DNA of 43,449 bases from Escherichia phage CY1_Cui-2023: sequence record OQ357823.1; one strand, 5' to 3'. The notes beneath the pieces are model-generated. The model worked only from the letters and a program-made list of their open reading frames with translations, searched no databases and was not told the origin of the DNA. The translations under genes and the position numbers were made by a program. This document shows positions 4,615 to 34,849 of the stretch, piece after piece. Within the stretch, counting starts at the first letter, position 1. Every line of letters begins with the position of its first letter.

Positions 4615-4682
4615 TTTCTTATTCCTTAGAATGTGCATTTCGTTTCGATGGAGTAATCATACCTCAACTGTGAGTTTTGTCT

Positions 4683-5683: not shown

Positions 5684-5782
5684 CTCTCTTCTGGTTTTTT
5701 CATGGCTCAAATCTGAGCCATCACTTTGGTTCCCAGCCTGAAATTTAGGTTGGATGACAGCACCATTGCCGCCACGCGCCTA

Positions 5783-5825
5783 AATATACCTAAAGATAGC
5801 CAGTTGTCTTTAGCAAATCGTGCTA
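5783..5825 (-). promoter_or_regulatory. dyad-operator promoter (TAGCA-cgatt-TGCTA) with -10 TATATT, for the Rha-like gene
   Basis: Dyad 5811-5825 read on minus strand; TATATT exactly 30 bp downstream (5788-5783). Confidence 0.5.
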
Positions 5826-5854
5826 TTTATCGACAATTTCACCATAAATCACAG

Positions 5855-6020
5855 TTACACGTAACCGATGTAACTCGATGTATACAATCTCATCCGCGGG
5901 AAATGATATACTCGCTGTTACGCCAATTTACGCATTGGTTACATTAAAATATCTATATATATCAACCTTTTACTCTTATTATTATTATTATATATATTAC
6001 TGTGTATATCATGTAACTAC
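5855..6020. repeat. intergenic control region with GTAAC/GTTAC motif cluster plus (TA)n and (ATT)5 microsatellites
   Basis: GTTACACGTAACCGATGTAAC, GTTACGCC, GGTTAC at 5862-5945; (TA)4-5 at 5953-5961; TTATTATTATTATTA at 5977-5991; CATGTAAC at 6010-6017; lies between divergent genes. Confidence 0.6.
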
Positions 6021-15092: not shown

Positions 15093-15344
15093 ATGTTTGG
15101 ATTAGATTTTCAGCCTGAGCATTATGATTTGGTGCGTGGGAGTAGTGGTGCTAAGTTTAGGGCGATACCTATTGCTGATTGGTTTCCTCCTGACTATGCG
15201 GATGTTAATGCGAAGACGAAGGATGGAAAGTGGGTTCAGATTTATTACTCGCCAGCGTGCGGCAATCTCTGCATGACTGACCTGGACGAGAAATTAGCAA
15301 TTAGTGCGAATTTAATTGATTACTGGCTGAAAGAGGTTGTATGA
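15093..15344 (+). CDS. hypothetical protein, 83 aa
   Basis: ORF with AAGGG SD. Confidence 0.45.
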   Translation: MFGLDFQPEHYDLVRGSSGAKFRAIPIADWFPPDYADVNAKTKDGKWVQIYYSPACGNLCMTDLDEKLAISANLIDYWLKEVV

Positions 15345-15425
15345 AGTACGCCGTCCTAGTAGCATTAGTACCACTGTTTAGCTTTACTATCTTATATTTT
15401 ATCGTGATGAACTAAGGATTTGAAA

Positions 15426-16559
15426 ATGACAGTAGCAAAGATTACCAACGATCAGCTAATCGAAGAACTTAAAAACGGCATGACTAACAAGGCGATTGCG
15501 GAGAAGTACGACATGAACATTCGCAACGTTGAACTTCGTCGCAGTAAGTTAGCTAAGAGTGGTTTGTTTGGGCATGGCAATGATGGTATCAAGAAGTTAG
15601 TGCCGGACGGCTATTTAGTCAAGGGTACTTCAACCATGATTGATGCGGATGGGAATGAGAAGCTGCGCTGGGTTAAGACGAGCGTTGATAATGAACGCCT
15701 TGAAATTATGCTCGAGCAAGCGCGAGAGGCTTTCTGTTCTGAGTTGCCAAAGTGTGAGGAAGTTAAGCATTCAGGCAAAGATACAAACCCTGACCTAATG
15801 ACACTGTATCCAATTTTCGACATACATATTGGAATGATGGCCCATCGCCACGAGTCTGGTGAAAATTATGACACGGCAACGGCAGAAAAACTAATGGGCT
15901 CATACTTTGACCATGCAATATCAGTTTCGCCAGCTTCAGAAAAGGCAGTCATCCTTGTTGGCGGTGATTATCTCCACTCAGATGGTCTTGAGGCGGTAAC
16001 TCCAGCTAGTGGCCACTGCCTTGACCAAGATAGCCGTTACGCTAAGTTAGTCTACATCGCAATTAGATCAATTCGTGGCGCTGTAGAAAAGATGCTTAAA
16101 AAGCATAAAAGTGTTGACATTCAAATTATCGAGGGAAATCATGACCAAAGCGGCATGATCTGGCTTCGGGCTGCGATGGCTGCATTTTATGAAAATGAGA
16201 GTCGTGTCTTTGTTGATGTAAGCCCTGCGATTATGCACAAGACAAGATTTGGCTCAACACTACTTGGCTACACTCATGGTCACACAATGAAGAAAGCGGA
16301 AGGTAGACTTGCAGCTATGGCAACCGATTACAGGAAAGACTTTGGTGAATGCGAGTTCGTTTATTGCCATTCCGGGCATTTTCACCACGCAACAGTAACA
16401 GAGTGCACTCTTGGTATTGACGAAGTACATCCAGCACTAGCAAGCAAGGATGCGTATGCAGCACGAGGGGGGTGGCGCTCATATCGTCAGGCTGCCGCGA
16501 TTGTTTATCACAAAGAGTTTGGCGAGGTTGGTCGTCATATCTATCGACCTGGAATGTAA
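15426..16559 (+). CDS. calcineurin-like metallophosphoesterase with N-terminal HTH-like extension
   Basis: Motifs DIHIG, GGDYLHSDG, EGNHDQ, GHT, GHFHH in the canonical metallophosphatase order; N-terminal ~120 aa contains TNKAIAEKYDMNIRNVE; AGGA SD before ATG 15426. Confidence 0.65.
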   Translation: MTVAKITNDQLIEELKNGMTNKAIAEKYDMNIRNVELRRSKLAKSGLFGHGNDGIKKLVPDGYLVKGTSTMIDADGNEKLRWVKTSVDNERLEIMLEQAREAFCSELPKCEEVKHSGKDTNPDLMTLYPIFDIHIGMMAHRHESGENYDTATAEKLMGSYFDHAISVSPASEKAVILVGGDYLHSDGLEAVTPASGHCLDQDSRYAKLVYIAIRSIRGAVEKMLKKHKSVDIQIIEGNHDQSGMIWLRAAMAAFYENESRVFVDVSPAIMHKTRFGSTLLGYTHGHTMKKAEGRLAAMATDYRKDFGECEFVYCHSGHFHHATVTECTLGIDEVHPALASKDAYAARGGWRSYRQAAAIVYHKEFGEVGRHIYRPGM

Positions 16560-19248: not shown

Positions 19249-19580
19249 GCAAACAATTCTTCGTCACTCATGGTTGCTATATTCATCATCTCATTAACAT
19301 AAGCACTAGACTTACCTTCAAGGCTCATAAACTCAAACTGGAATGGCCTCTTGCCTGAACCCTTTGACCAGTACACGCCATTAACTCCATCAAGATAACC
19401 AGCCGTAAGCATTCTCGCCATAAACTCCTTCGAGCAACTAGATGCAAAATACCTTTCATCAACTCCAGCGGCCTTAGCCATCCTTGCACAATCCTTGTGC
19501 TTGTAGATGAATCTTGCCAGGTGCTGGCGGTTGAAGTTCCTGTATCCTTCGCAGAACTTGTATACGTCGAGTAGAAACAT
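19245..19580 (-). CDS. hypothetical protein, 111 aa
   Basis: ORF with GGGGTGA SD; immediately downstream of the 527-aa gene on the minus strand. Confidence 0.5.
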   Translation of the reverse strand: MFLLDVYKFCEGYRNFNRQHLARFIYKHKDCARMAKAAGVDERYFASSCSKEFMARMLTAGYLDGVNGVYWSKGSGKRPFQFEFMSLEGKSSAYVNEMMNIATMSDEELFA

Positions 19581-19583
19581 CTA

Positions 19584-21167
19584 TCACCCCAACAATCGCG
19601 GATTAATGTAAATCTTATCACCAATCAGGCATGTATAGTTTTTCTCATCAAGCATAGGAACCAAGTGGTCCTTGATGCGAGTCATTACGCCAGCCTGTCC
19701 TTCAAAAGGTTTAACTTTGCGTGCTGCTTCATACAGTGAGCGAACGCCAACAACACCCTTCCCATTCTTACCTTGCTTAATCAGGATATCAACCAGCTTA
19801 TTCATTTCAGCATTATCACCAGCATGACCAGCAGCACTAGCGGACGACAAATAAGTCTTGCTTAACTCGTGGAAAATCATAACCGCTTCTTGCATTGTTT
19901 CAAGCTCAATCTCTCTTGATTTCTGCGGACTCGACCCTGCCGGTGCGAACCAGTTGCGAATAACGTGCAATACTGAGGCAATACGGATTGCTTGCTTATC
20001 AAATTTACCAAGAGCACCACGTAACATCGTGTGGGAATATTTACCGCCATCACCAAGATGCGGTTCCATTTCCTGGCGAGCTCGGTTAAGGTAGCGCATG
20101 GATGACGCACTTACTGTCAGTTTCACTTCAACTTCATTCATAATTTCATGAACGAGACGGAAATAGTCTGCTTTAAGACCATCATCAATAGCCTCGTATG
20201 TTGAATCGCCATTCTCATCAACAAACACGCGGTCTCCAAGAAATGACTTTTCACGCACCAGAAGGAAACGCTCGGAAACACCAATACCACGCGCACCAGC
20301 ATTCATAATCGCATTGATTGTTTCATCCTGAGCAATTACAGAGATGCACCCCATTGCCACGAAACTCATGTTGTTTTCTGCGTTAGCGCGGGCAATAGAT
20401 ACGTTACCAGCATCCCACGCTTTAAGTACAAGCTCGCTGTTCGTTTTCTTGGAACCATCACCGTATGTCATGCCCAATAATGAGTTGACGCTTGTTGCCT
20501 CATCCGAGATGACCGCAAAGTTACCCTGGCGGTTGTTGATTCGTGCAAGACCTTCTGGCGTAGTATCTGAGACCGGGAATACGATATCGCACAGCTTCTC
20601 GAGCTTTTCCTCTAAATCTTCCTTCTCCTCAAACAGTGAAGCCATCTCAGATGGTGACTTCTCCTGTTTCATTTCTTTTGCTAGCGCAGACAGCTTAGCC
20701 ATAATCTTTTTGCGGTCACGTTTACGCACCTCGTTCAAACGCTCAGTCTCAGCAATCATTGGCGCAATTGACAGAGAGTTAATGGCTGACTTACCAGTAG
20801 ATGGCGGCTGGCTAGTTACCACGTAAAGCGATGTTGGCTGCTGGGTTCCGTGATACTCAACAGTAAAGCGCCCTAGCATCGCAGCGGACACACAACCCAA
20901 AAAGTGCATGTATGCTGATGACTCTGGGAACTGAACTGAGCGAGCAATATTTGCCGAGAGCTTACCAACAACATCAATGTCATTGCCTAGAGATATTACA
21001 GGGTACTTGTCATTACCTGCGTCAATCTCCACAGGTGTTTTCCAGAATGATTGAGACTGCCGATAGCCATTTGCATTAATGGCCACGCGAAGCGGTGGGA
21101 GGTTGTCGGTCGCGGCAATCGCCATAACTTGTTCAACAGATAGTTTATCTTCGTTGAAATCAAACAT
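19584..21167 (-). CDS. large P-loop-containing protein of unknown function (possibly DUF3987-like), 527 aa
   Basis: Long ORF with SD ACGGAGAG; deviant Walker A-like TSQPPSTGKS and Walker B-like AVISDEAT; N- and C-terminal segments are homologous to the 160-aa ORF at 23768-24250. Confidence 0.55.
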   Translation of the reverse strand: MFDFNEDKLSVEQVMAIAATDNLPPLRVAINANGYRQSQSFWKTPVEIDAGNDKYPVISLGNDIDVVGKLSANIARSVQFPESSAYMHFLGCVSAAMLGRFTVEYHGTQQPTSLYVVTSQPPSTGKSAINSLSIAPMIAETERLNEVRKRDRKKIMAKLSALAKEMKQEKSPSEMASLFEEKEDLEEKLEKLCDIVFPVSDTTPEGLARINNRQGNFAVISDEATSVNSLLGMTYGDGSKKTNSELVLKAWDAGNVSIARANAENNMSFVAMGCISVIAQDETINAIMNAGARGIGVSERFLLVREKSFLGDRVFVDENGDSTYEAIDDGLKADYFRLVHEIMNEVEVKLTVSASSMRYLNRARQEMEPHLGDGGKYSHTMLRGALGKFDKQAIRIASVLHVIRNWFAPAGSSPQKSREIELETMQEAVMIFHELSKTYLSSASAAGHAGDNAEMNKLVDILIKQGKNGKGVVGVRSLYEAARKVKPFEGQAGVMTRIKDHLVPMLDEKNYTCLIGDKIYINPRLLG

Positions 21168-21197
21168 TACTTCTCTCCGTATTGTTTCTGAGCGGCC

Positions 21198-21240
21198 ATT
21201 ATATCAACAGCCGCTTATAATGCATTATCAATTCGTGCTG
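21198..21240 (-). promoter_or_regulatory. dyad-operator promoter variant (CAGCA-cgaat-TGATA) with consensus -10 TATAAT, for the 527-aa gene
   Basis: Dyad 21226-21240 on minus strand; TATAAT (reverse complement of 21198-21203) exactly 30 bp downstream. Confidence 0.5.
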
Positions 21241-21594
21241 CTATTTGTAAGATGATTCAAATAGGTAAGTCTGGCAAAGAGTGTAGAAACCAACATCTTC
21301 GCTTCGATATAGCTGCCATGCATTACCATCTTCGTCGTAAATGTAACCAGCAGACTGACCCATCCCGCTATGCATTAGCACCTGGTATCTCTTTCCTTCT
21401 TTGAAATCCTTCTTAACGCCAGATTTGTGGTTAACATGTGTCACGTAAAGCGTTCTGGTCTTAATGTATTTACCACGTTCTTCCAGATTAACCCATTTGC
21501 CATCTTTCTTGATTTGCTCGACACCATCTTTAACGCGAGCTTTAAACAGTTGGTTGTCTTTGCTAATGAAATTTTTAGTTATGGTAGTAGTCAT
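21241..21594 (-). CDS. hypothetical protein, 117 aa
   Basis: ORF; ATG overlaps the stop of the upstream small ORF. Confidence 0.5.
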   Translation of the reverse strand: MTTTITKNFISKDNQLFKARVKDGVEQIKKDGKWVNLEERGKYIKTRTLYVTHVNHKSGVKKDFKEGKRYQVLMHSGMGQSAGYIYDEDGNAWQLYRSEDVGFYTLCQTYLFESSYK

Positions 21595-23767: not shown

Positions 23768-24250
23768 ATGAATATCGCCAGGCAAGATGGACTTTCGCCA
23801 GTCAGAATCGTAATAAATGCAAATGGGTATCGTCAGTCAACGCCATTCTGGGGTTCGATTGATACGTCAGATGTGTACTCAGGTGATGAGCTTGGTGTGC
23901 TAATTAAAATCATCAGGAAGATGGGAGTTAACGGGAAAGGAGTGGTTGGTGTCAGGTCTGTATATGAAGGAGCTCGAAAGGTTAAGCCTTTTGTTGGGCG
24001 TAATGGAGTGATGTTGCTCATCAAGGACAAGCTAATCCCAGAGCTCGACAAGATGAATGTTACATGTCTAATTGGCGATAAGGTTTATGTTCACCCCGCA
24101 ATACTAAATGAGTGTTTGGAGCCTAACTTCAAGGTCTACGAAGGTAAGCATCCTAGTAGACTACCATACCACTTGCGGTACAGCGAGGAAGAGGTTGAGG
24201 CGGCGATGGAGTTTTATCGGGAAGCTAAATTACTCCTGAATGGACAATAG
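23768..24250 (+). CDS. mini-paralog of the 527-aa P-loop protein (N- plus C-terminal segments only); upstream in-frame ATG 23726 is cut off by an amber codon
   Basis: Residues align with the N-terminus (RVAINANGYRQS) and C-terminus (GKGVVGVRS..ARKVKPF...TCLIGDK.Y) of the 19584-21167 product; the reading frame is continuous from ATG 23726 except for TAG at 23759-23761. Confidence 0.45.
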   Translation: MNIARQDGLSPVRIVINANGYRQSTPFWGSIDTSDVYSGDELGVLIKIIRKMGVNGKGVVGVRSVYEGARKVKPFVGRNGVMLLIKDKLIPELDKMNVTCLIGDKVYVHPAILNECLEPNFKVYEGKHPSRLPYHLRYSEEEVEAAMEFYREAKLLLNGQ

Positions 24251-25901: not shown

Positions 25902-25977
25902 GTTCTGCTGGCGTAACAGGATAACGCAAAGACCTCCTAAGTCTTAGTTGCTGGTTCGAGTCCAGCGCGGAACACCA
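25902..25977 (+). tRNA. tRNA-Arg (anticodon CCU)
   Basis: Hand-folded cloverleaf: acceptor GTTCTGC/GCGGAAC (one G-U), D-arm GCGT-AACAGGATA-ACGC, anticodon arm AAGAC-CTCCTAA-GTCTT (CCT at 25936-25938), T-arm GCTGG-TTCGAGT-CCAGC, discriminator A plus encoded CCA; 76 nt. Confidence 0.8.
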
Positions 25978-25993
25978 ATAAAGGAGATTCATT

Positions 25994-26176
25994 ATGTGGG
26001 ATGTTAAGCTTTCAATCCGCTTAATGGGTCGAAGCTGTAAGAATTGTCAGCAAGAATTTATCGCGTCGGTTACCGCTGAGTCCTCAGAGGAAGCGGTAGC
26101 GAAAGTAAAGGTAATGTCTGGTGCCGACCCGTATTACCACAAATTCCTAGTAACTTACGTTCGTGAGCGAAAGTAA
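25994..26176 (+). CDS. hypothetical small protein, 60 aa
   Basis: Strong SD AAAGGAGA before ATG 25994; contains CKNC. Confidence 0.5.
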   Translation: MWDVKLSIRLMGRSCKNCQQEFIASVTAESSEEAVAKVKVMSGADPYYHKFLVTYVRERK

Positions 26177-26228
26177 AAGAAGTTCTACTCTCTGGTTGTT
26201 TCATCTCTCTCGTTGTTGTTCGATAATT

Positions 26229-26252
26229 CGCCCTCTTCTTGAGGGCTTTTTT
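26229..26252 (+). terminator. intrinsic terminator separating the early/accessory block from the packaging genes
   Basis: GCCCTC-TTCTT-GAGGGC hairpin followed by TTTTTT. Confidence 0.7.
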
Positions 26253-26264
26253 ACGTCTGTAATA

Positions 26265-26273
26265 TGGTATAAT
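26265..26273 (+). promoter_or_regulatory. extended -10 promoter (TGGTATAAT) for the packaging/head operon
   Basis: TG-N-TATAAT at 26265-26273, 25 nt upstream of terS ATG; no good -35. Confidence 0.4.
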
Positions 26274-26298
26274 CCTACATCAACAAAGGAGGTCACAA

Positions 26299-26823
26299 AT
26301 GAAAGACGAAAACTTCACCAGCCAGGCGCAAGAAAAGATTCGCTCTGGCAACTTCAAAGCCATGTACAACAAAAAGTATTCTGACATTACAACTCTGTCC
26401 AAAAACCGAATAATGACCCCAGAGCAGCTATTCGACCTGGCCGTGAAATACTTCTCATGGGCTGAGAGCCAGGCAATCAAGGCAATTGAGACAGCCAGCT
26501 TCCAGGGTGTCGTAACCGAGAATCTGGTGCACAAGCCACGAGTCTTCACACTAACAGGATTCTGCCTTTACTGCGGTGTTACCCATAGCGCAATAGAGAA
26601 ATGGAGGAAGTCGGCGGGTTATGACGAGGTAATTGCATTCATTGATTCCGTGATTCGCGAGCAGAAGTATCAGCTGGCAGCGTCTGGCATTGTTAACCCT
26701 GGCATGATTTCCAAAGAACTTGGCATCGATAAGCCGCAGGAGATTACTATAAGCAATAACTCTTCAGCTAACGACGTTGGCACGATGAAGGAAGCGCTGG
26801 AGTCTGTGATTAGTAAGCTGTAG
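26299..26823 (+). CDS. terS: terminase small subunit
   Basis: 174-aa ORF with strong SD AAAGGAGG, positioned immediately upstream of the HNH and large terminase genes. Confidence 0.6.
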   Translation: MKDENFTSQAQEKIRSGNFKAMYNKKYSDITTLSKNRIMTPEQLFDLAVKYFSWAESQAIKAIETASFQGVVTENLVHKPRVFTLTGFCLYCGVTHSAIEKWRKSAGYDEVIAFIDSVIREQKYQLAASGIVNPGMISKELGIDKPQEITISNNSSANDVGTMKEALESVISKL

Positions 26824-26862
26824 CACTTTTTGTTAAAAGAAGAGGCCCAATCAATGAGATAA
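26821..26862 (+). promoter_or_regulatory. dyad-operator promoter (TAGCA-ctttt-TGTTA) with -10 GATAAT, upstream of HNH gene
   Basis: Dyad 26821-26835 overlaps terS stop; -10-like GATAAT 26857-26862 sits in the loop of hairpin GGCCCA...TGGGCC. Confidence 0.45.
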
Positions 26863-26891
26863 TGGGCCCAACAAACTAGCGAGGTGATCAT

Positions 26892-27398
26892 ATGAATTGG
26901 CATGATATTTTTGAATATAGAGACGGGCTTTTAATAAGAAAGGTAAAAGTAGCAAATGTATCAAAGGTTGGAGAGGTGGCCGGAAGAGTTGATAAATTTG
27001 GCTATGTGATACTAAAGTATAGACAAAAAGCATACAGGTGTCACAGGGTGGTGTGGGAGATGCACAATGGAGCAATCCCTAAAGGCATGTACATAGATCA
27101 CATAAACCAAAATAGAAGTGACAATAGAATAGAGAACTTAAGGTTAGTAAGCAATAAAGAGAACTCAAATAACAGATCACTATCATCAAGAAATAAAAGC
27201 GGAATAAACGGTGTAAGCTGGTGCAAAAGAGAGAATAGATGGCTTGTTCAGGCTAGAGAGTTTGGTAAAACAGTCTTCATATGCTACAAGGACACTATAG
27301 AGGAGGCTGCATTGGCAAGGTCGCAGTATGACAAATTGAACGGATATCATGAAAATCATGGCTCTGAAAATAAAGGCTACCTAAATACGAGAGCGTAA
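26892..27398 (+). CDS. HNH homing endonuclease with AP2-like DNA-binding domain
   Basis: HNH core (CHRVVWEMHNG...IDHINQNRSDNRIENLRLVSNKEN) followed by AP2-like segment (KSGINGVSW...W.A..F.....DTIEEA); inserted between terS and terL. Confidence 0.8.
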   Translation: MNWHDIFEYRDGLLIRKVKVANVSKVGEVAGRVDKFGYVILKYRQKAYRCHRVVWEMHNGAIPKGMYIDHINQNRSDNRIENLRLVSNKENSNNRSLSSRNKSGINGVSWCKRENRWLVQAREFGKTVFICYKDTIEEAALARSQYDKLNGYHENHGSENKGYLNTRA

Positions 27399-27400
27399 CA

Positions 27401-28972
27401 ATGAGTGAATTAATAGTCTGGGATGAACTGACTCACGCTGAAAAGATGGCTATAAAGGCAATCTCTGAGCATAGTTTCGAAGGGTTCTTGCGGTGCTTCT
27501 TTCAGATAACGCAAGGCGAGAGATTCAAAATGAATTGGCATGCTAAATACCTTTGTCGTGTCATAGATGAGATTCTTGATGGTAAGAGAAAGGATACCAT
27601 CATAAACGTAGCTCCTGGATCAGCCAAAACCGAGCTCTTTAGTATACATTTCCCTGTATATAGCATGATCAAGATTAAGAAGGTTAGAAATCTTAGTTTG
27701 TCGTTCTCTGACTCATTGGTTAAGCGTAACTCAAAGCGTGTGCGCGACCTGATTAAGTCAAAGGAGTTTCAGGAACTTTGGCCTTGCTCATTTGGGACTT
27801 GCAGGGATGATGAGATTCAGGTTCTAGATGAAGATGGAAAGGTGAGGTTTGAATCGATATCTAAGGCAATGGCTGGACAGGTGACTGGTTCGCGTGGTGG
27901 TTACATGACCGATGATTACAGTGGATGCATAATGCTTGATGACCCGCTGAAGCCAGATGATGCGCTTAGTAATGTAAGGAGGGAGGCTGTTAATATGCTT
28001 CTCAAGAACACAATTCGCTCACGAAGGGCGAGTTCAGTTAAGGGAAAAGAGACTCCAATATTAGCCGTTCAGCAAAGGCTTCATGTTCTTGACACTAGTC
28101 ACTTCATGGAGTCTGGGCAGATGGGGATAAAATTCGACGTAGTTAAAATTCCAGCAATAGTCACGGAAGAATACGCCGACACGCTTCCTGAATGGATTAG
28201 GCAGCAGTTTATAGATGACGTTCTTTCTTCGCCATTTGTAGAGCGCGATGGGGTTAAGTATTACAGCTACTTCCCAGCAAAGGAATCAATAGAAGACTTG
28301 ATAGCCATGCGTGATGCTGATCCTTACACATTCCTTAGTCAATATGCTCAGGAGCCTGTAGCTCTAGGTGGCAACCTGATTAACGTAGACTGGCTCCAGC
28401 GCATTAGTGACACCCTGCGACCGCCAGCTAAGTACGATTACAGGTTCATGACGCTTGATACCGCGATGACCACTAAAAGCTACAGTGACTTTAGTGTACT
28501 GCAACTCTGGGGCTATAAGGATGGCAAGATTTACCTGTTAGACCAGCGACGTGGTAAATGGGAGGCGCCAGAGCTAGAGGCAGAGCTATTAGACTTCGAG
28601 AGGATGGCAAGGGCATCCAATCAGACAGATGGTATCCTTCGTAAAATCATCATCGAGAAGAAAGCATCTGGTATAGGTCTGATTCAATCAGCAGGAAGGG
28701 TTATGCGAACGCCTATCGAGCCATACGTGCCAGATAACGACAAGCTGACTCGCGTAATGAGTGCACTTCCTCAGATTAAGGCTGGCAACGTTATCCTGCC
28801 GGAGTCAGCAAATTGGCTTAACGGATTGCTAACAGAGATTGCAGCATTTACGGCAGATGATTCTCACTCGCACGATGACCAGATAGACTGTTTGACGATG
28901 GCTGTCAACCTGGTACTGAACATCGCAGAAGACCCTAAAGCGAGAATGATGCGATTAGCAGGAATTAAATAA
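27401..28972 (+). CDS. terL: terminase large subunit
   Basis: 523-aa ORF with N-terminal ATPase and C-terminal nuclease-like acidic motifs (ILDDPLKPDD...), located between terS and portal. Confidence 0.8.
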   Translation: MSELIVWDELTHAEKMAIKAISEHSFEGFLRCFFQITQGERFKMNWHAKYLCRVIDEILDGKRKDTIINVAPGSAKTELFSIHFPVYSMIKIKKVRNLSLSFSDSLVKRNSKRVRDLIKSKEFQELWPCSFGTCRDDEIQVLDEDGKVRFESISKAMAGQVTGSRGGYMTDDYSGCIMLDDPLKPDDALSNVRREAVNMLLKNTIRSRRASSVKGKETPILAVQQRLHVLDTSHFMESGQMGIKFDVVKIPAIVTEEYADTLPEWIRQQFIDDVLSSPFVERDGVKYYSYFPAKESIEDLIAMRDADPYTFLSQYAQEPVALGGNLINVDWLQRISDTLRPPAKYDYRFMTLDTAMTTKSYSDFSVLQLWGYKDGKIYLLDQRRGKWEAPELEAELLDFERMARASNQTDGILRKIIIEKKASGIGLIQSAGRVMRTPIEPYVPDNDKLTRVMSALPQIKAGNVILPESANWLNGLLTEIAAFTADDSHSHDDQIDCLTMAVNLVLNIAEDPKARMMRLAGIK

Positions 28973-28984
28973 GCGTGATAAACT

Positions 28985-29007
28985 AGCCTCTTAAATGGGG
29001 CTTTTTT
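28985..29007 (+). terminator. hairpin plus T-run directly fused to the portal SD (TTTTTTATTGGAG)
   Basis: AGCCTC-TTAAAT-GGGGCT then TTTTT, immediately followed by GGAG and ATG 29022. Confidence 0.45.
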
Positions 29008-29021
29008 ATTGGAGCAAGAAA

Positions 29022-30296
29022 ATGGTAAAAGCAGATTCATACGCCACGCAGTTCCTGGGTGGAACTAGTGATGGTAGCGAGATTTACGGGCAATTCGGCA
29101 ACACTTACCTTGCGCCACCATTCGCCGATTCACTTTACGTGTCTAACTCACTGGTTCGCCGCATCGTCGATACCATCCCAGAGACAGCAATCGCCGCAGG
29201 TTTCCATATTGATGGCATTGATAACGAGGGTGAATTCTGGTCAAGGTGGGATTACCTAAAGGTCAACGAGTCAATCTCTGACGCATGGTCATGGGCGAGG
29301 TTGTTCGGCGGCTCAGCTATTGTGGCTATCGTTAAGGATAATCGTGCGCTAACTAGTCCGGTACGTGAAGGTGCTGAACTTGAATCGCTTCGAGTATACG
29401 ATCGCAGTCAGGTGAGGGTGCAAGCGAAGGAGGAGAATCCTCGCAATGTTCGATTTGGAAAACCACTAACGTACCGCATAACACCTGAAGGTAGCTCCAC
29501 GTTTTATGATGTGCATTACTCTCGAGTTCACATTATGGATGGAGAGAAGATTCCTAGCTCATTGCGTCTCGGCAATGATGGGTGGGGTGCTAGCGTTCTG
29601 GTTCCTGACCTACTGGAGGCAATCAAGGATTATCAGACGTGCGAGAAACTGGCAACCCAGTTATTGCGCCGTAAGCAACAGGCGGTATGGAAGGCGAAGG
29701 GGCTTGCTGAATTGTGTGACGACGCAGAAGGTTTTGGTGCGGCAAGGTTAAGGCTGGCTCAGGTTGATGATAATTCCGGCGTTGGTCGCGCGATTGGTAT
29801 TGATGCAGAGTCTGAAGAGTACAGTGTTCTGAACTCGGATATTGGTGGGATTGATGGATTCCTGGATAAGAAATTCGACAGGATTGTTGCTCTGAGTGGT
29901 ATTCATGAAATCATCCTCAAAGGCCGTAACGTTGGTGGTTTGTCATCAAGCCAAAACACAGCATTGGAGACATTCCATAAACTAATCGACCGCAAGAGAA
30001 ATGAAGAATTACTCCCTGTTCTTGGTTTTTTAATCCCGTTCATCACAACCGAGCAGGAATGGTCAGTTGAGTTTAATCCGCTAGCTCAGGAATCGAAGAA
30101 GGACCGCGCTGAAATACTGAAGAATAACGTTGATTCAATCGCCACTCTCATCACTAACGGAGTAATGGACGCAGATGAAGCACGAGATACCTTGCGCGCA
30201 TTAGCCCCTGAGGTTAAGATTGGTGAAGGTTCGATTGTAACTGAGCAGCCCGCACAAGAAGAATCACCAAAAGAGGAGATTGTAATTGAAAGCTAA
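29022..30296 (+). CDS. portal protein
   Basis: About 425-aa ORF after terL with SD GGAG 7 nt upstream of ATG 29022 (track start 28995 lacks an SD); acidic C-terminus. Confidence 0.75.
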   Translation: MVKADSYATQFLGGTSDGSEIYGQFGNTYLAPPFADSLYVSNSLVRRIVDTIPETAIAAGFHIDGIDNEGEFWSRWDYLKVNESISDAWSWARLFGGSAIVAIVKDNRALTSPVREGAELESLRVYDRSQVRVQAKEENPRNVRFGKPLTYRITPEGSSTFYDVHYSRVHIMDGEKIPSSLRLGNDGWGASVLVPDLLEAIKDYQTCEKLATQLLRRKQQAVWKAKGLAELCDDAEGFGAARLRLAQVDDNSGVGRAIGIDAESEEYSVLNSDIGGIDGFLDKKFDRIVALSGIHEIILKGRNVGGLSSSQNTALETFHKLIDRKRNEELLPVLGFLIPFITTEQEWSVEFNPLAQESKKDRAEILKNNVDSIATLITNGVMDADEARDTLRALAPEVKIGEGSIVTEQPAQEESPKEEIVIES

Positions 30297-31398
30297 AATT
30301 CGTTATGACAGTGCAAAAGTTAAAGCGCGATTTGACGAAAACGGATTCCTGGTAGATACACCTGTGGTTGCTCGCGTAGGCGTGCAATCATACTACCTGC
30401 CAGATGGCTCGGAACGACGCGAATTTAGGCCAGCTTCAGAGGTCTTTAAAGCTGATTCTCTTGCAAGTTATCAGGGCAAGCCGATTACCTTAGGCCACGT
30501 GTTTGTTAACGTTGATAATGCCAAGCAGGTAGTTGTAGGCTCAGTGTCTGGCTCAGCAATGCGTCAGGATTCGAACGTGGTAGTTCCACTAACCGTTTAC
30601 GACAAGGAATCAATCGAGAAAGCTAAATCTGGCATTGCCGCCGAGTTATCTGTAGGCTACTCGACTGTTGATGTTGAGTCTCCAGGTTGGGGGAGTAATG
30701 AGACTGGTGAATACAAGTTGGATGGTGATTACGAGTCCCAAGATGAAATTCCACCTGACTGGGTTCGTTTTGATGCACTGCAAACTAACATTATTGTTAA
30801 TCACGTTGCAATGGTATACAAAGGTCGCGCAGGTGTTGCAAAATTGAATATGGACGCAGAACAGGAAAACCCGTATACTGACAGCGTTGATTCTATTAAA
30901 GAGGATGTTAAAGAAATGGTTAAGATTAAACTGGATGGCGCCCAGGAGTTCGAAATCGCTCCAGAAGTTGCCGCACACATTGAAGCTATTAAAAAAGATG
31001 CAGTTGACGCTAAAACCAAAGCCGACTGCATTGAAGCTGAGCGTGATGCGCTGAAGGCTAAAGTAGACGCGATGCCTGCTGAAATCGAGAAAGCCGTTAA
31101 AGCTGCTAAAGCCGACGCTGAAGCACTTGCCGCTCTGGTTACTGTAGCCGCAGAGGTTGGAATTAAGACTGATGGTCTGGATGCTAAAGGCATCAAAGTA
31201 GCTTACGTTAAAGAAGTTTCCGGCCTTGATGTTGCTGATAAATCCGACGCATACATCGACGCAGCGTTCGACATTGCCAAGGATTCTGATAAAATGGCTG
31301 AAGTTCGTAAAGCTACCGTAGCTTCCGACAAATCTGACAAAGCTGACGAACCTAAGAAATTAGACCCACGTGCTCGTCTGGCTAAAATTAAAAAGTAA
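30286..31398 (+). CDS. head maturation protease / scaffold-like protein (TTG start)
   Basis: TTG 30286 with strong SD AAGAGGAG; C-terminal half is Ala/Lys/Glu/Asp-rich coiled-coil-like (scaffold-like); sits between portal and capsid genes. Confidence 0.55.
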   Translation: MKAKIRYDSAKVKARFDENGFLVDTPVVARVGVQSYYLPDGSERREFRPASEVFKADSLASYQGKPITLGHVFVNVDNAKQVVVGSVSGSAMRQDSNVVVPLTVYDKESIEKAKSGIAAELSVGYSTVDVESPGWGSNETGEYKLDGDYESQDEIPPDWVRFDALQTNIIVNHVAMVYKGRAGVAKLNMDAEQENPYTDSVDSIKEDVKEMVKIKLDGAQEFEIAPEVAAHIEAIKKDAVDAKTKADCIEAERDALKAKVDAMPAEIEKAVKAAKADAEALAALVTVAAEVGIKTDGLDAKGIKVAYVKEVSGLDVADKSDAYIDAAFDIAKDSDKMAEVRKATVASDKSDKADEPKKLDPRARLAKIKK

Positions 31399-31409
31399 GG
31401 AGATAGATA

Positions 31410-31904
31410 ATGGCAATTCGTTCTGTAGCTCTGGCAGGTATGGTAGCTGATACTTCCCTGTATAATATCGATGGTGCTTGTGTAGTTGGTGGTACTGCTG
31501 CCACTAGAATCCCGGTTGGAACATTCGTAGGTGTTAGCACCGCTCAGCCAGTAGATGGTCACAAGGTTGTTGCCCTTCCGGCTATATCAGGAACTGCAAT
31601 TAAACCTTACGGCGTTGTTGTTAAATCTCATTATGAGACTCCAGATGGTCAGGCTCGCGGCCTTGAGGCAGTTAACGTAATGACTTCTGGTCGTATTTGG
31701 GTTCGCACTACTCTTGCAGCTGCTCCGGCATTTGGTGACAAGGTTTTCGTAAATGAAAGTGGCGTTGTTGCCGCTAAAGTGGGACGTTCTACCTGGGGAA
31801 CTGGTTTCACATTTGCTGGTGGCTATGTATCAGCTAGTGAAAGCGTTGATGGCGCACTGGTTGAAGTTCAGCTGATTCAATCCGCAGACTCAACTGTGGC
31901 TTAA
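31410..31904 (+). CDS. putative head decoration / head-associated protein, 164 aa
   Basis: SD AAGGAG; Gly/Val/Ala-rich beta-type sequence between scaffold and major capsid genes. Confidence 0.45.
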   Translation: MAIRSVALAGMVADTSLYNIDGACVVGGTAATRIPVGTFVGVSTAQPVDGHKVVALPAISGTAIKPYGVVVKSHYETPDGQARGLEAVNVMTSGRIWVRTTLAAAPAFGDKVFVNESGVVAAKVGRSTWGTGFTFAGGYVSASESVDGALVEVQLIQSADSTVA

Positions 31905-31930
31905 CAAAATCTGAATGCACAAATAAACAA

Positions 31931-31951
31931 CCTCCTTCGGGAGGTTTTTTT
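31931..31951 (+). terminator. intrinsic terminator
   Basis: CCTCC-TTCG-GGAGG hairpin followed by TTTTTTT. Confidence 0.7.
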
Positions 31952-32046
31952 ATACCTTCCGCTTGGTCATGATAGAATCATTGCGCGGTCCTCAAACTAG
32001 TGTATAATTGACTCGTACATACCTAACTGAAAAGGAATAAACAAGA

Positions 32047-32991
32047 ATGGCCATTAAATTTGATGCAGAACAAGCAAAAATCACCGCTCACCTAGAGCAA
32101 ATGGGCGTAGATAAGGCTGATGCTGCTGGTATCTGGACCGTTAAGCAGTTAACCGCATCACTGAATCGCGCTTACGAAAAAGAATACGCAGACAACTCAG
32201 TTGTCAACATCTTCCCAGTAACCAACGAAATCCCTGGTCACGCGAAATACTTCGAATACCCTGAGTTCGATGGTGTTGGTATTGCTCAGATCATCGCTGA
32301 TTACTCTGACGACCTGCCGCTGGTTGATGCTTTCATGACCGAGAAGCAGGGTAAAGTATTCCGCTTCGGTAATGCGTTTATGATCTCAGTTGATGAGATT
32401 AAAGTTGGCGCTGCTACTGGTCAGTCACTGTCCGCTCGCAAACAGGCTTTGGCTTTTGAAGCTCACGACAACCTGCTTGATAAACTGGTATGGTCTGGCT
32501 CTGCACCTCACGGCATCGTAGGCGTATTTAACCAGCCGAACATCAACAACGTTGTTGCAACTCCAAACTGGAGCAATCCAATTAACGCGGTTAACGACGT
32601 TACCGCAATGATTGATGCTGTAGAAACCAGCACACAGGGCTTCCACCATGTAACTGACATTCTGCTGCCAGCTTCCGCTCGCCGTGTAATGCAGCGCCTT
32701 GTTGATAATACAACCCTGAGCTATGGCGAGTTGTTTACTCGTAACAACCCAGGTGTAACCCTGCGCTTTATGCAGTTCCTGGATAACTACGATGGTGCTG
32801 GCGGTAAAGCTGCGCTGGCGTTTGAAAAGGATCCGCTCAACATGAGCATCGAGATTCCGGAAGTTACAAACGTTTTACCTGGTCAGCCTCGTGATCTTCA
32901 CTTCCGCTTCCCTGTAACCTCTAAGGCGACAGGTTTGATTTTATATCGCCCTCTTACAGTGGCAGCTATCAAAGGAATTACCTTTGCCTAA
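32047..32991 (+). CDS. major capsid protein
   Basis: 314-aa ORF with SD AAGGAA, positioned after portal/scaffold/decoration genes; abundant-protein-like codon usage. Confidence 0.7.
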   Translation: MAIKFDAEQAKITAHLEQMGVDKADAAGIWTVKQLTASLNRAYEKEYADNSVVNIFPVTNEIPGHAKYFEYPEFDGVGIAQIIADYSDDLPLVDAFMTEKQGKVFRFGNAFMISVDEIKVGAATGQSLSARKQALAFEAHDNLLDKLVWSGSAPHGIVGVFNQPNINNVVATPNWSNPINAVNDVTAMIDAVETSTQGFHHVTDILLPASARRVMQRLVDNTTLSYGELFTRNNPGVTLRFMQFLDNYDGAGGKAALAFEKDPLNMSIEIPEVTNVLPGQPRDLHFRFPVTSKATGLILYRPLTVAAIKGITFA

Positions 32992-33034
32992 TAGCACTAA
33001 ATGACAAAACAATACCACCGAAAGGTGGTATTTT
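32992..33034 (+). promoter_or_regulatory. degenerate dyad operator (TAGCA-ctaaa-TGACA) with terminator hairpin in spacer, upstream of second HNH gene
   Basis: Dyad 32992-33006 right after capsid stop; hairpin ACCACC-GAAA-GGTGGT plus TTTTT 33013-33035; weak -10 TATTTT 33029-33034; leader CATCAAAACAATGGAGG. Confidence 0.35.
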
Positions 33035-33062
33035 TGTTTCCATCAAAACAATGGAGGCGAAA

Positions 33063-33659
33063 ATGAAAATTGAAGAACTACTAACTCACGAAGAGCTAAC
33101 ATCAAGACTTGAATCAGATTCTGAAAGTCCCGTTATGACATGGAAAGTAAAGCCGGGAAATGATAGGTTTACAAATGTATGGAATTCAAGGTACGCCGGA
33201 AAGGTTGCTGGAGGTGAATTCACTCCAAACCCAACATGCCCAGAAAGTAAGATGTGGAAGCTATGTATTAAAGTTTCCGGGAAGAAGTTTCACGTTTCAA
33301 TGCATAAGTTAAAGTGGTTTTATCATCACGGGAGTTGGCCGACAGGTGAGATAGATCACATTGATGGTAACTCATTAAACAATAGGGTGGAAAACCTAAG
33401 GGTTGTTACTCGAAGTGAGAACATGATGAATACGAGCCTATACAAAAGGAACAAGAGTGGATTTAAAGGTGTTAGCTACGATAAATCAAGGGGGAAGTGG
33501 AAAGCCCAGATACAAAAGGATTGCGGAGATGTAAGGATGGCTAAAAGGTTTGACACAATTGAAGAGGCTAAGGAGTGTTACGACAGTTGGTGTAAAGAAA
33601 TATTCGGCGAGTACGGAAACGCCAATGGGGTTCACGAAGGCGATTGTTTAGTGCTATAA
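33063..33659 (+). CDS. HNH homing endonuclease with AP2-like domain (paralog of 26892-27398)
   Basis: EIDHIDGNSLNNRVENLRVVTRSEN then KSGFKGVSY...GKWKAQI...FDTIEEA, parallel to the first HNH; GGAGG SD before ATG 33063. Confidence 0.8.
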   Translation: MKIEELLTHEELTSRLESDSESPVMTWKVKPGNDRFTNVWNSRYAGKVAGGEFTPNPTCPESKMWKLCIKVSGKKFHVSMHKLKWFYHHGSWPTGEIDHIDGNSLNNRVENLRVVTRSENMMNTSLYKRNKSGFKGVSYDKSRGKWKAQIQKDCGDVRMAKRFDTIEEAKECYDSWCKEIFGEYGNANGVHEGDCLVL

Positions 33660-33689
33660 TCAATCATCAATTAATAAAAGGAGCAAGTA

Positions 33690-33935
33690 ATGATTAAGTT
33701 AGAACACACTGGCGCGTGCATGATTGTTTATAAAGGTGCTAAATACTTACCTGGCGACACAATTGAAGCAAGTGAGCTTTGTGATGGACTGAAACGCCTG
33801 ATTGCTGAAGGTAAGCTCACTATTGAAGGTGACTACAAGGCAACTAAAGAAGTGGCGCAAGAAATCAACAGTAAGAAAAAACGCAAAGAACCAAAGACCA
33901 TCTCTGAAGCCGAGACTGGCAACGAGTACAAATAA
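33690..33935 (+). CDS. hypothetical protein, 81 aa
   Basis: SD AAAGGAG before ATG 33690. Confidence 0.5.
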   Translation: MIKLEHTGACMIVYKGAKYLPGDTIEASELCDGLKRLIAEGKLTIEGDYKATKEVAQEINSKKKRKEPKTISEAETGNEYK

Positions 33936-33941
33936 CAAAAT

Positions 33942-33964
33942 GGGCGCTTCGGCGTCCGTTTTTG
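33942..33964 (+). terminator. intrinsic terminator
   Basis: GGGCGC-TTCG-GCGTCC hairpin followed by GTTTTT. Confidence 0.55.
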
Positions 33965-33976
33965 TATGGAGGTAAT

Positions 33977-34093
33977 ATGTCATTATTTTTAGCGGTTATG
34001 TCAGTACTTCTATTCATCCCAATGTCTTTGGTTGGTTTGATTCTTATTGCTGCATTTATTAATGGCGACCTATTCCGGAGGTTTTATGAATGA
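33977..34093 (+). CDS. hypothetical small membrane peptide, 38 aa
   Basis: GGAGG SD before ATG 33977; translation MSLFLAVMSVLLFIPMSLVGLILIAAFINGDLFRRFYE. Confidence 0.3.
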   Translation: MSLFLAVMSVLLFIPMSLVGLILIAAFINGDLFRRFYE

Positions 34094-34481
34094 ACAAGCA
34101 TTAGCATTCATGAGGTCATTAGTTCCTGCCCTTAAGAATGTTTCTGATGAAACACTTGACGTATGGCTTGAACTGGCTAAACTTTACATCTGCACTAGTA
34201 AGTTTGGTGATGATGCTTACAAGGCACTTGCACTGTACACTATGCACATTGCCTTTCTTGATGGTGCACTTAAGCAGAATGAGTCTTTGGATGATTACGG
34301 TAAGAAGGTGGCAAGTTACTCCCTGAGTGGTGAGTTCTCTATCAGCTATGAATCAACGTCTCAATCACAATCAGCACTGACTTCCACCCCGTGGGGTCGT
34401 CTGTACTGGAACCTTCTGCGTAAGAAAGGTGGTGGCTTTGGATTGGTTACGTCCGGTGGGCGTGGGTGCGGTTGCCGATGA
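34086..34481 (+). CDS. putative head-tail connector / head completion protein
   Basis: ORF in the connector position between head and tail genes; GGAGG SD before ATG 34086 (track start 34047 is TTG). Confidence 0.45.
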   Translation: MNEQALAFMRSLVPALKNVSDETLDVWLELAKLYICTSKFGDDAYKALALYTMHIAFLDGALKQNESLDDYGKKVASYSLSGEFSISYESTSQSQSALTSTPWGRLYWNLLRKKGGGFGLVTSGGRGCGCR

Positions 34482-34849
34482 ATTACTCTCAAATCGAATC
34501 ATTAATGCGAGCGGGAATCAATATCTTTAGTGATGGCGATGGTACGTTTACCATGGAAACTGGTAAAGGTGGGGTGGAGATTGTCGATGGTGTCGAGGTT
34601 CCTGTATCTGGCGGCACTGCATTAATCAAGGGGCTGGTGAGGGAGATTAAAACCAGAGATATTGATGGTGAGTATATTCAGTTTGGCGATAAGCGTGGAA
34701 TCTTCACTTCCGAGGTGCCAATCTTGCAAGGCTACAGGATTATTGTTGATGACGAAACTTACACTGTAGTCGACCCGAGACCAGTGAAACCAACAGGTAC
34801 TGTAGTCGCATACAGGCCAATTCTGAGGAGGATTGCTGCTTATGGCTAA
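34478..34849 (+). CDS. putative head-tail joining protein
   Basis: ATGA-coupled ORF in the connector region. Confidence 0.45.
   Translation: MNYSQIESLMRAGINIFSDGDGTFTMETGKGGVEIVDGVEVPVSGGTALIKGLVREIKTRDIDGEYIQFGDKRGIFTSEVPILQGYRIIVDDETYTVVDPRPVKPTGTVVAYRPILRRIAAYG

Follow-up and report, generated by a model that had tools for sequence, protein, structure and literature searches.

Two probable homing endonuclease cassettes at the terminase and capsid junctions of an Rtp-like coliphage

Introduction

Do the two HNH endonuclease genes on either side of the terL-to-capsid block of Escherichia phage CY1_Cui-2023 serve the phage, or are they mobile elements that have lodged beside its essential genes? 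The phage is represented by sequence record OQ357823.1, a stretch of 43,449 bp that was analysed in full and is called the window here. It holds the genome of an Rtp-like coliphage, either complete or circularly permuted, which belongs to the Christensenvirus group of the Braunvirinae (Drexlerviridae). One of the genes, HNH1, lies between terS and terL (site 1), and the other, HNH2, lies between the major capsid gene and a DUF7444 gene (site 2). Here, we report that the two genes are paralogs with an intact catalytic motif, that their presence is polymorphic among related phages, and that each is part of a precisely bounded unit headed by a copy of a direct repeat previously published for the Drexlerviridae. 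HNH1 and HNH2 are probably free-standing cassettes of selfish homing endonuclease genes (HEGs), whose products belong to the I-HmuI-like HNH_3 class and end in an AP2-type tail for DNA binding.

Results

Two intact and paralogous HNH_3 genes

A first-pass annotation, made from the sequence alone, had described two paralogous HNH-AP2 genes, one between terS and terL and one following the major capsid gene. Both open reading frames (ORFs) are present and intact as described (Table 1), and the neighbours assigned by Pfam agree with the positions given. The two proteins share 41% identity over 113 aa (E=3e-20), a match that spans the HNH core and the AP2-like tail. Pfam HNH_3 is found in HNH1 (E=4e-22, 78 bits) and in HNH2 (E=3e-16, 59 bits) against a cutoff of 24.8 bits, and both proteins are assigned to phrog_99. 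The AP2 assignment held for HNH2 (E=9e-9, 35.9 bits against a cutoff of 33.3) and stayed below threshold for HNH1. HNH1 matches I-HmuI (PDB 1U3E) over its full length (E=1e-4); a search of the PDB with the HNH2 sequence gave no match. Aligned with each other and with I-HmuI, 13 phage paralogs show no variation at H51, D69, H70, N78, N82, N91 or N94, and because the catalytic columns are thus unchanged, both enzymes look active. No third HNH copy was found in a search of the window. For HNH2 a start at 33063 is preferred over the ATG at 33051, with a GGAGG at 33053-57 and a -10-like hexamer 28 nt before the start, as in HNH1.

The genes belong to a very large family, with tblastn matches to HNH1 in 2,776 phage records and to HNH2 in 3,416. 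In the region 26000-34500 the window is 99.7% identical to Rao1 and TR2, 99.8% to TR3 and 98.9% to TR1, TR2 being the nearest phage by whole-genome comparison. The proteins of Rao1, TR2 and TR3 at the two sites are 100% and 99.5% identical to those of the window and are annotated as 'HNH (homing) endonuclease'. Identical or near-identical genes are present in Rao1 (gp12 and gp18), TR1, TR2 and TR3; the window, which differs from them in nothing substantive, represents one more isolate of the group. HNH1 and HNH2 are probably ordinary free-standing homing endonuclease cassettes, and near-identical public genomes already annotate them as such.

Variable occupancy of the two junctions

Both genes are free-standing, as had been proposed: each is an intergenic ORF of its own, outside any intron or intein, and the flanking genes terS, terL, the capsid gene and DUF7444 are all complete and collinear with those of HEG-less relatives. 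The expectation that their presence would vary was borne out by synteny comparison at both sites, and neither gene was universally present in the relatives checked. Site 1 is occupied in Rao1, TR1-3, ES, 2725-N35, BEK2/3, phiEB49, BECP10, Rtp (rtp20), FP and JeanPiccard. It is empty, with a gap of 16-18 nt, in IMM-001, the 12210I series, SU57, Rogue1, phiJLA23, ECH1, Phagiculus, IME253 and more distant T1-like phages, and the empty state is that of the majority of relatives sampled. Site 2 is occupied in Rao1, TR2, TR3, IMM-001, C119 and phiKP26, and empty in TR1, IME253, RES-2009a, SU57, Jk06, DTL, AugustePiccard, the 12210I series and others. Even the near-identical genomes differ in their load of HNH genes, with two in the window and in TR3, three in Rao1, four in TR2 and five in TR1, distributed over seven junctions.

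The HNH ORFs found at one and the same junction share just 27-50% amino acid identity, and the junctions therefore appear to have been invaded, or their occupants replaced, repeatedly. Leaders are 91-98% identical where the flanks are 73-80% identical; since leaders remain nearly identical while ORFs and flanks diverge, leaders and ORFs seem to have partly separate histories. The 78-nt leader of site 1 is common to the site-1 HNH genes of Rtp, BEK2/3, FP, 2725-N35, JeanPiccard and ES. It is 91-94% identical in Rtp, BEK2, FP, 2725-N35 and JeanPiccard, and the proteins encoded behind it in 2725-N35 and BEK2, the two compared, are about 41-43% identical to HNH1. A named counterpart is rtp20 of Rtp, which shares both junction and leader (93.6% identical) with HNH1. 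The 54-nt leader of site 2 is 98% identical in IMM-001, where the HNH ORF is different and the 3' flank in the capsid gene is 73% identical. A co-conversion trace in the capsid 3' end shared with IMM-001 was considered and rejected, this identity not being specially close. Taken together, these patterns suggest spread of cassettes rather than vertical descent.

Apparently inactivated copies were found at both sites. The site-1 HNH of BEK2 (576-1088 of its stretch) is 97.6% identical to the copy in 2725-N35 but has DR in place of the catalytic DH and a V in place of a D, and the site-2 HNH of phiKP26 (693-1270 of its stretch) is broken by frameshifts. With the patchy occupancy, these copies read as the pattern of gain, decay and loss expected of HEGs.

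HNH_3 paralogs also lie at five further junctions of the closest relatives, all of them without a counterpart in the window (Rao1 20820-21308; TR2 15129-15653 and 19365-19844; TR1 15207-15686, 19633-20007, 20894-21385 and 30248-30718). In some Rogunavirinae and related phages, namely e4/1c (540-633), Sd1 (580-693) and PCEc3 (608-709), the junction between terS and terL holds an ORF for a hydrophobic membrane peptide of 33-37 aa and no HNH gene. More generally, the junction is a hotspot at which small insertions collect. The 80-90 extra bp seen there in relatives had been considered as the remnant of a solo repeat or HEG leader, an idea that was rejected as they consist of these membrane-peptide ORFs.

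Boundaries of the cassettes

Alignment of occupied and empty alleles places the edges of both insertions exactly. At site 1 the insertion starts within the terS stop codon and ends in the old ribosome-binding region of terL. The first three bases of the repeat copy at 26821 make up the terS stop codon TAG; in the empty alleles this stop is TAA, the terL start follows 16-18 nt on, and there is no repeat copy. At the other edge the HNH1 ORF reads into the former ribosome-binding region, and its stop codon TAA stands 2 nt before the terL ATG at 27401. The terL N-terminus read from this ATG (MSELIVWDEL...) is collinear with terL of the HNH-less 12210I and IMM-001. The start has been annotated 132 nt (44 codons) downstream in Rao1 (4746), TR1 (42868), TR2 (43940) and TR3 (39608), and given this collinearity the terL annotation of these four genomes is too short. 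HNH1 probably has its target in the vicinity of the terL start.

At site 2 the repeat copy follows the capsid stop codon directly and is missing from the empty alleles. The absence of the repeat from empty alleles indicates that it belongs to the HNH cassettes. Behind it, the cassette carries an intrinsic terminator in place of the resident capsid terminator, GCCCTCTTCGGAGGGC-T6, of the empty alleles, and the -10-like hexamer TATTTT (33029-33034) overlaps the 3' arm and T-tract of this structure. The unrelated site-2 cassette of C119/KP26 likewise consists of a repeat, a hairpin and a T-tract. At the right edge the HNH2 stop codon TAA falls inside the -10 sequence TATAAT (33655-33660) of a promoter-like site for DUF7444. 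This site is kept in the empty alleles, in which DUF7444 follows directly after the capsid terminator and promoter, and SU57 is annotated with a terminator and a promoter there. Because HNH1 ends ahead of the terL ATG in its ribosome-binding region, and because HNH2 supplies a terminator for the capsid gene and ends in the next -10, the insertions at both sites appear to preserve the signals of the host phage.

A direct repeat with promoter-like geometry

Each gene had been thought to lie behind a dyad operator serving as its own promoter. What lies at 26821 and 32992 is in each case a copy of the Drexlerviridae 21-nt direct repeat aaATAGCACnnnTTGnTAAAA. In TLS, for which it was described, this repeat occurs 21 times, some 76 nt ahead of start codons, and falls into A, T and G subclasses; the same authors also saw it in T1, Rtp and Rogue1 (PMC11447400). 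They left its function undecided among a stoperator, an enhancer site and an UP element (PMC11447400). The copies in the window conform to that description in consensus, subclasses, co-directionality and a distance of about 71-76 nt to start codons. The motif TAGCAC-N4-TG-N-TAAA has 22 matches in the window with at most 2 mismatches, where 4.9 are expected and none of 100 shuffles reached 22. Its strand is always that of the downstream gene and its position is almost always intergenic. Both the 26821 copy, without mismatch, and the 32992 copy, with one, lie 71 nt before the ATG of their HNH gene (26892 and 33063) and are co-directional with it.

The motifs are thus real and beyond chance, and the symmetry and the operator role ascribed to them fared less well. 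The dyad TAGCA-N5-TGCTA is perfect only in the 'GAA' subclass and is imperfect in the HNH copies TAGCActtttTGTTA and TAGCActaaaTGACA, and no binding protein is known. The possibility that the GC hairpins at 26844-26868 and 33011-33032 were the dyads meant was rejected, as the positions 26821 and 32992 are those of the repeats and the hairpins stand apart in the spacers. Small hairpins occur in the spacer of many other repeat copies.

A hexamer matching TATAAT in at least 5 of 6 positions is found exactly 20 nt downstream of 12 of the 22 copies, with 0-1 at other offsets and a mean of 0.12 (maximum 2) in 2000 trials at random positions. ORFs start 27-41 nt past the hexamer, which is followed by a conserved A/C-rich leader resembling ATCGAAACGA. 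This geometry puts the centre of the repeat near -42 of a promoter with a weak aaGACA-like -35. HNH1 fits it fully, with no mismatch, GATAAT and the ATG at +28. HNH2 fits less strongly: the repeat has one mismatch, the hexamer TATTTT matches in 4 of 6 positions, the ATG is again at +28 behind the leader ATCAAAACAA, and the spacer is a true terminator, which the first-pass annotation had overlooked. A standard sigma-70 scan for -35/-10 pairs found nothing upstream of either HNH gene and a total for the window equal to the shuffle expectation; such a scan is uninformative for a repeat-type promoter. The claim of a promoter for each gene is largely upheld by the repeat and hexamer geometry, and the predicted promoters are well supported in silico.

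The repeat heads 12 of the 16 HNH genes inspected in Drexlerviridae phages of the same group. Within the window the hexamer-bearing copies mostly head replication, recombination and small non-structural genes, the head module holding only the two HNH copies, and the HNH cassettes may accordingly be expressed together with the non-structural genes. Searches of the literature for the repeat's exact sequence and for transcriptome studies of Drexlerviridae returned only the TLS paper (PMC11447400). The fixed 20-nt spacing from repeat to hexamer and the association with HNH cassettes are absent from that paper and are seen here.

Copies located 19-21 nt upstream of a hexamer were recorded at 4682(-), 4999(-), 5809(-), 7479, 11733, 14224, 16564, 17774, 21224(-), 21817(-), 22627(-), 24248, 25165, 26821, 32992 and 36380. 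In the relatives, the TR2 cassette at 19365 has repeat copies on both flanks, and the TR1 ORF at 20894 ends within a repeat copy.

A natural recombinant

TR1, which carries HNH1 and is empty at site 2, matches the window at about 100% identity between about 24250 and 32886. To the right of that, starting at the capsid stop codon, its sequence agrees at 100% identity over at least 2.2 kb with IME253, a phage in which both sites are empty. Informative-site analysis locates the crossover in a short patchy zone at 32886-32966, within the last ~100 nt of the capsid gene and ~100 nt upstream of the point at which HNH2 is inserted. On the left, the part of TR1 that resembles the window has its edge at the repeat at 24248. 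Such a crossover could have arisen when HNH2 broke an IME253-like genome in the 3' end of its capsid gene and the break was repaired from one side, a reading that is suggestive only. Breakpoints between the window and Rao1 or TR1-3 (window ~5741-5931, 10251, 22791, 24211 and 32901 among them) lie within 160 nt of a repeat in about 7 of 16 cases, where chance predicts about 2, a comparison confounded by the intergenic location of both.

Gene neighbourhood

The features of the region are collected in Table 1. Between the DUF7444 and DUF4054 genes, the window has an insertion of ~98 bp (33978-34076) relative to Rao1, TR2 and TR3, which codes for a hydrophobic peptide of 38 aa (MSLFLAVMSVLLFIPMSLVGLILIAAFINGDLFRRFYE) and in which the ribosome-binding site GGAGGT is duplicated. 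It looks like a tiny moron-like gene. A single tRNA-Arg gene (anticodon CCT, 25902-25977) lies upstream of a DUF3667-like small ORF and terS, as it does in TR1, TR2 and TR3.

Table 1. Features of the terS-to-DUF4054 region, in window coordinates.
Feature	Position	Strand	Description
terS	26299-26823	+	GP3_package (Pfam)
Direct repeat copy, site 1	26821..26837	+	TAGCACTTTTTGTTAAA, 'T' subclass; 0 mismatches; left edge of HNH1 cassette
Short inverted repeat	26844..26868	+	GGCCCA-N13-TGGGCC; spans the -10-like hexamer; z = -1.55, alone not significant
-10-like hexamer, site 1	26858..26863	+	GATAAT (5/6); exactly 20 nt after the repeat
HNH1	26892-27398	+	I-HmuI-like HNH_3 endonuclease, 168 aa; sub-threshold AP2-like tail; Shine-Dalgarno (SD) sequence GAGGTG at 26881-86
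terL	27401-28972	+	Terminase_6C (Pfam), 523 aa; conserved essential gene beside HNH1 cassette
Portal	28995-30296		Pfam
Protease/scaffold	30286-31398		DUF2213 (Pfam)
Cement protein	31410-31904		Pfam
Major capsid gene	32047-32991	+	Major_capside (Pfam)
Direct repeat copy, site 2	32992..33008	+	TAGCACTAAATGACAAA; 1 mismatch; directly after capsid stop codon; left edge of HNH2 cassette
Intrinsic (rho-independent) terminator	33011..33040	+	AATACCACC-GAAA-GGTGGTATT and T-tract; z = -5.6; within the spacer from repeat to -10
Predicted RNA hairpin	33029..33065	+	15 bp; T-tract region against HNH2 SD (GGAGG 33053-57) and AUG; dG -14.5, z -4.1, 0/200 shuffles
HNH2	33063-33659	+	HNH_3 and AP2 endonuclease, 198 aa; N-terminal region longer and different
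DUF7444 gene	33690-33935	+	Pfam; right-hand neighbour of HNH2 cassette
DUF4054 gene	about 34089-34481		Pfam

Discussion

The cassette that would be mobilized comprises the repeat, a 20-nt spacer with a small hairpin, the -10-like hexamer, a short A/C-rich leader, the SD and the ORF. Such units would have been inserted precisely at intergenic junctions beside highly conserved essential genes, terL and the major capsid gene, in an arrangement that would spare the host phage. In a mixed infection, the enzyme would nick or cut the allele that lacks the HEG in a related phage, close to the unoccupied junction, and repair would then copy the cassette, with some flanking DNA, into the recipient, presumably by the phage's own exonuclease and Erf-type recombinase.

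Several points weigh against this scheme. We know of no activity, target site or homing event that has been demonstrated for HNH1, HNH2 or their close relatives. The AP2 match in HNH1 (E=0.015, 16 bits) is under the Pfam cutoff of 33.3, the AP2-like tail of this protein being recognized solely by its in-register alignment with AP2-positive paralogs. The -10-like hexamer of HNH2 is weak (4/6) and overlaps the T-tract of the terminator, and HNH2 may for that reason be expressed mainly by read-through. As the phiKP26 record contains Ns, its frameshifts may be sequencing errors. No HNH1-less relative was found with flanks closer than about 80% identity, so that recent mobility of HNH1 is not directly visible, and the crossover in TR1 could equally well be explained by ordinary modular recombination at intergenic boundaries.

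The location of HNH1 between terS and terL, with its stop codon 2 nt from the terL start, recalls terminase accessory nucleases of the HK97 gp74 type that aid terL in cutting concatemers, and the first-pass annotation had allowed for a part in packaging cleavage. In cos phages, HNH genes adjoining the terminase genes are known to form part of the packaging machinery (PMC3592412). Apart from this adjacency the resemblance ends: gp74-type enzymes have a [CxxC]2 zinc site, act in phages with cos ends and are conserved members of the packaging module (PMC3592412), whereas HNH1 has none of these traits. It belongs to Pfam HNH_3 with an I-HmuI architecture, and neither HNH1 nor HNH2 contains a single CxxC pair. 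Many relatives with homologous terS and terL have no gene at this junction, and in others it is filled by at least four unrelated HNH lineages or by the membrane-peptide ORF. The near-identical TR1 is reported to package by a headful mechanism, with its pac site in another ORF (PMC10450929), and paralogs of the same family also occupy junctions among replication and tail genes. Because the junction is so often empty or variably filled, the family is wrong and the zinc site missing, TR1 is headful and paralogs lie elsewhere, we reject the packaging role, which we regard as very improbable. Hardly more credible than this, and if anything less so, is that nuclease function has been lost and that the proteins are now AP2-type DNA-binding regulators of the neighbouring late genes; the AP2 domain and the location at operon junctions would suit such a role, but neither protein has a change in any of the catalytic HNH columns, and the genes are dispensable in relatives. 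The phage might instead keep the proteins because they benefit it, serving as weapons against relatives in the same cell, which would be degraded or excluded (marker exclusion). All sequence data agree with this, the cassettes adjoin genes that competitors must share, and several HNH genes are retained per genome. Exclusion and homing are inseparable by sequence alone and not mutually exclusive, but the patchy distribution, the replacement of lineages and the apparently inactivated copies in BEK2 and phiKP26 are a better fit to gain, decay and loss, and we consider exclusion an unlikely main explanation.

The upstream repeat may be a repressor site ('stoperator') or an RNA-level signal, with the HNH genes expressed only by read-through from terS and the capsid gene. 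Stoperator, enhancer site and UP element were all listed as possibilities by the TLS authors (PMC11447400); in the window, a strong terminator follows the site-2 repeat, the -10 there matches in just 4 of 6 positions, and the sigma-70 scan offered no -35/-10 pair. Against this stand the fixed 20-nt spacing to a TATAAT-like hexamer in more than half of the copies, far above the chance expectation, a strand that always follows the gene, an ORF start 27-41 nt past the hexamer and the conserved A/C-rich leader. Promoters with an upstream element whose centre is near -42 have this layout, and a non-promoter role for the repeat is accordingly thought rather doubtful, if less so than the alternatives considered for the proteins. 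For HNH2, the predicted hairpin in which SD and AUG base-pair with the T-tract region is possible only in read-through RNA, as RNA from near the predicted own start (~33042) would be unstructured. Translation of HNH2 might thus be repressed in capsid read-through RNA, a weak hypothesis, and a hairpin sequestering the SD was sought in the C119 cassette and found not to be conserved. Translational control is known for homing endonuclease genes of T4, which the proposed hairpin resembles.

HNH1 and HNH2, read as homing endonuclease cassettes, have close parallels among known systems. I-HmuI, an HNH nicking homing endonuclease of Bacillus phage SPO1, resembles HNH1 in the DH...N...N columns, the strand-rich N-terminus and a size of ~170 aa; its gene, however, sits within a group I intron and its C-terminus is a helix-turn-helix/NUMOD module, whereas the genes of the window are free-standing and their products have an AP2-like end. 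The free-standing HEGs of T4 type, such as mobE and segB, are likewise intergenic cassettes beside conserved genes, polymorphic and equipped with regulatory signals of their own, and for these intronless homing with co-conversion of flanks has been proposed, similar to the spread proposed here. The cassettes of the window differ in residing in a Drexlerviridae siphovirus, in being known from sequence, and in apparently using the Drexlerviridae direct repeat as promoter element instead of a T4 early, middle or late promoter.

The cassettes reveal little new biology as such. What is gained is a corrected annotation of two HEG cassettes with their boundaries, the terL start at 27401 and the terminator in the site-2 leader, and the removal of the packaging hypothesis. 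For engineering and phage therapy, both junctions are proven permissive for insertion, and HEGs can bias the inheritance of markers in phage crosses. A more speculative possibility, to which we would give fairly low credence, is that modules of repeat, hairpin and -10 are portable boundary elements by which HNH cassettes and small genes are swapped between junctions and genomes, that breaks made by HNH enzymes drive mosaicism in the Drexlerviridae, and that TR1 is a natural product of this process. The added value of the present analysis lies in the link between cassette and repeat and in the fixed promoter-like geometry of the latter, which together make the promoter hypothesis directly testable.

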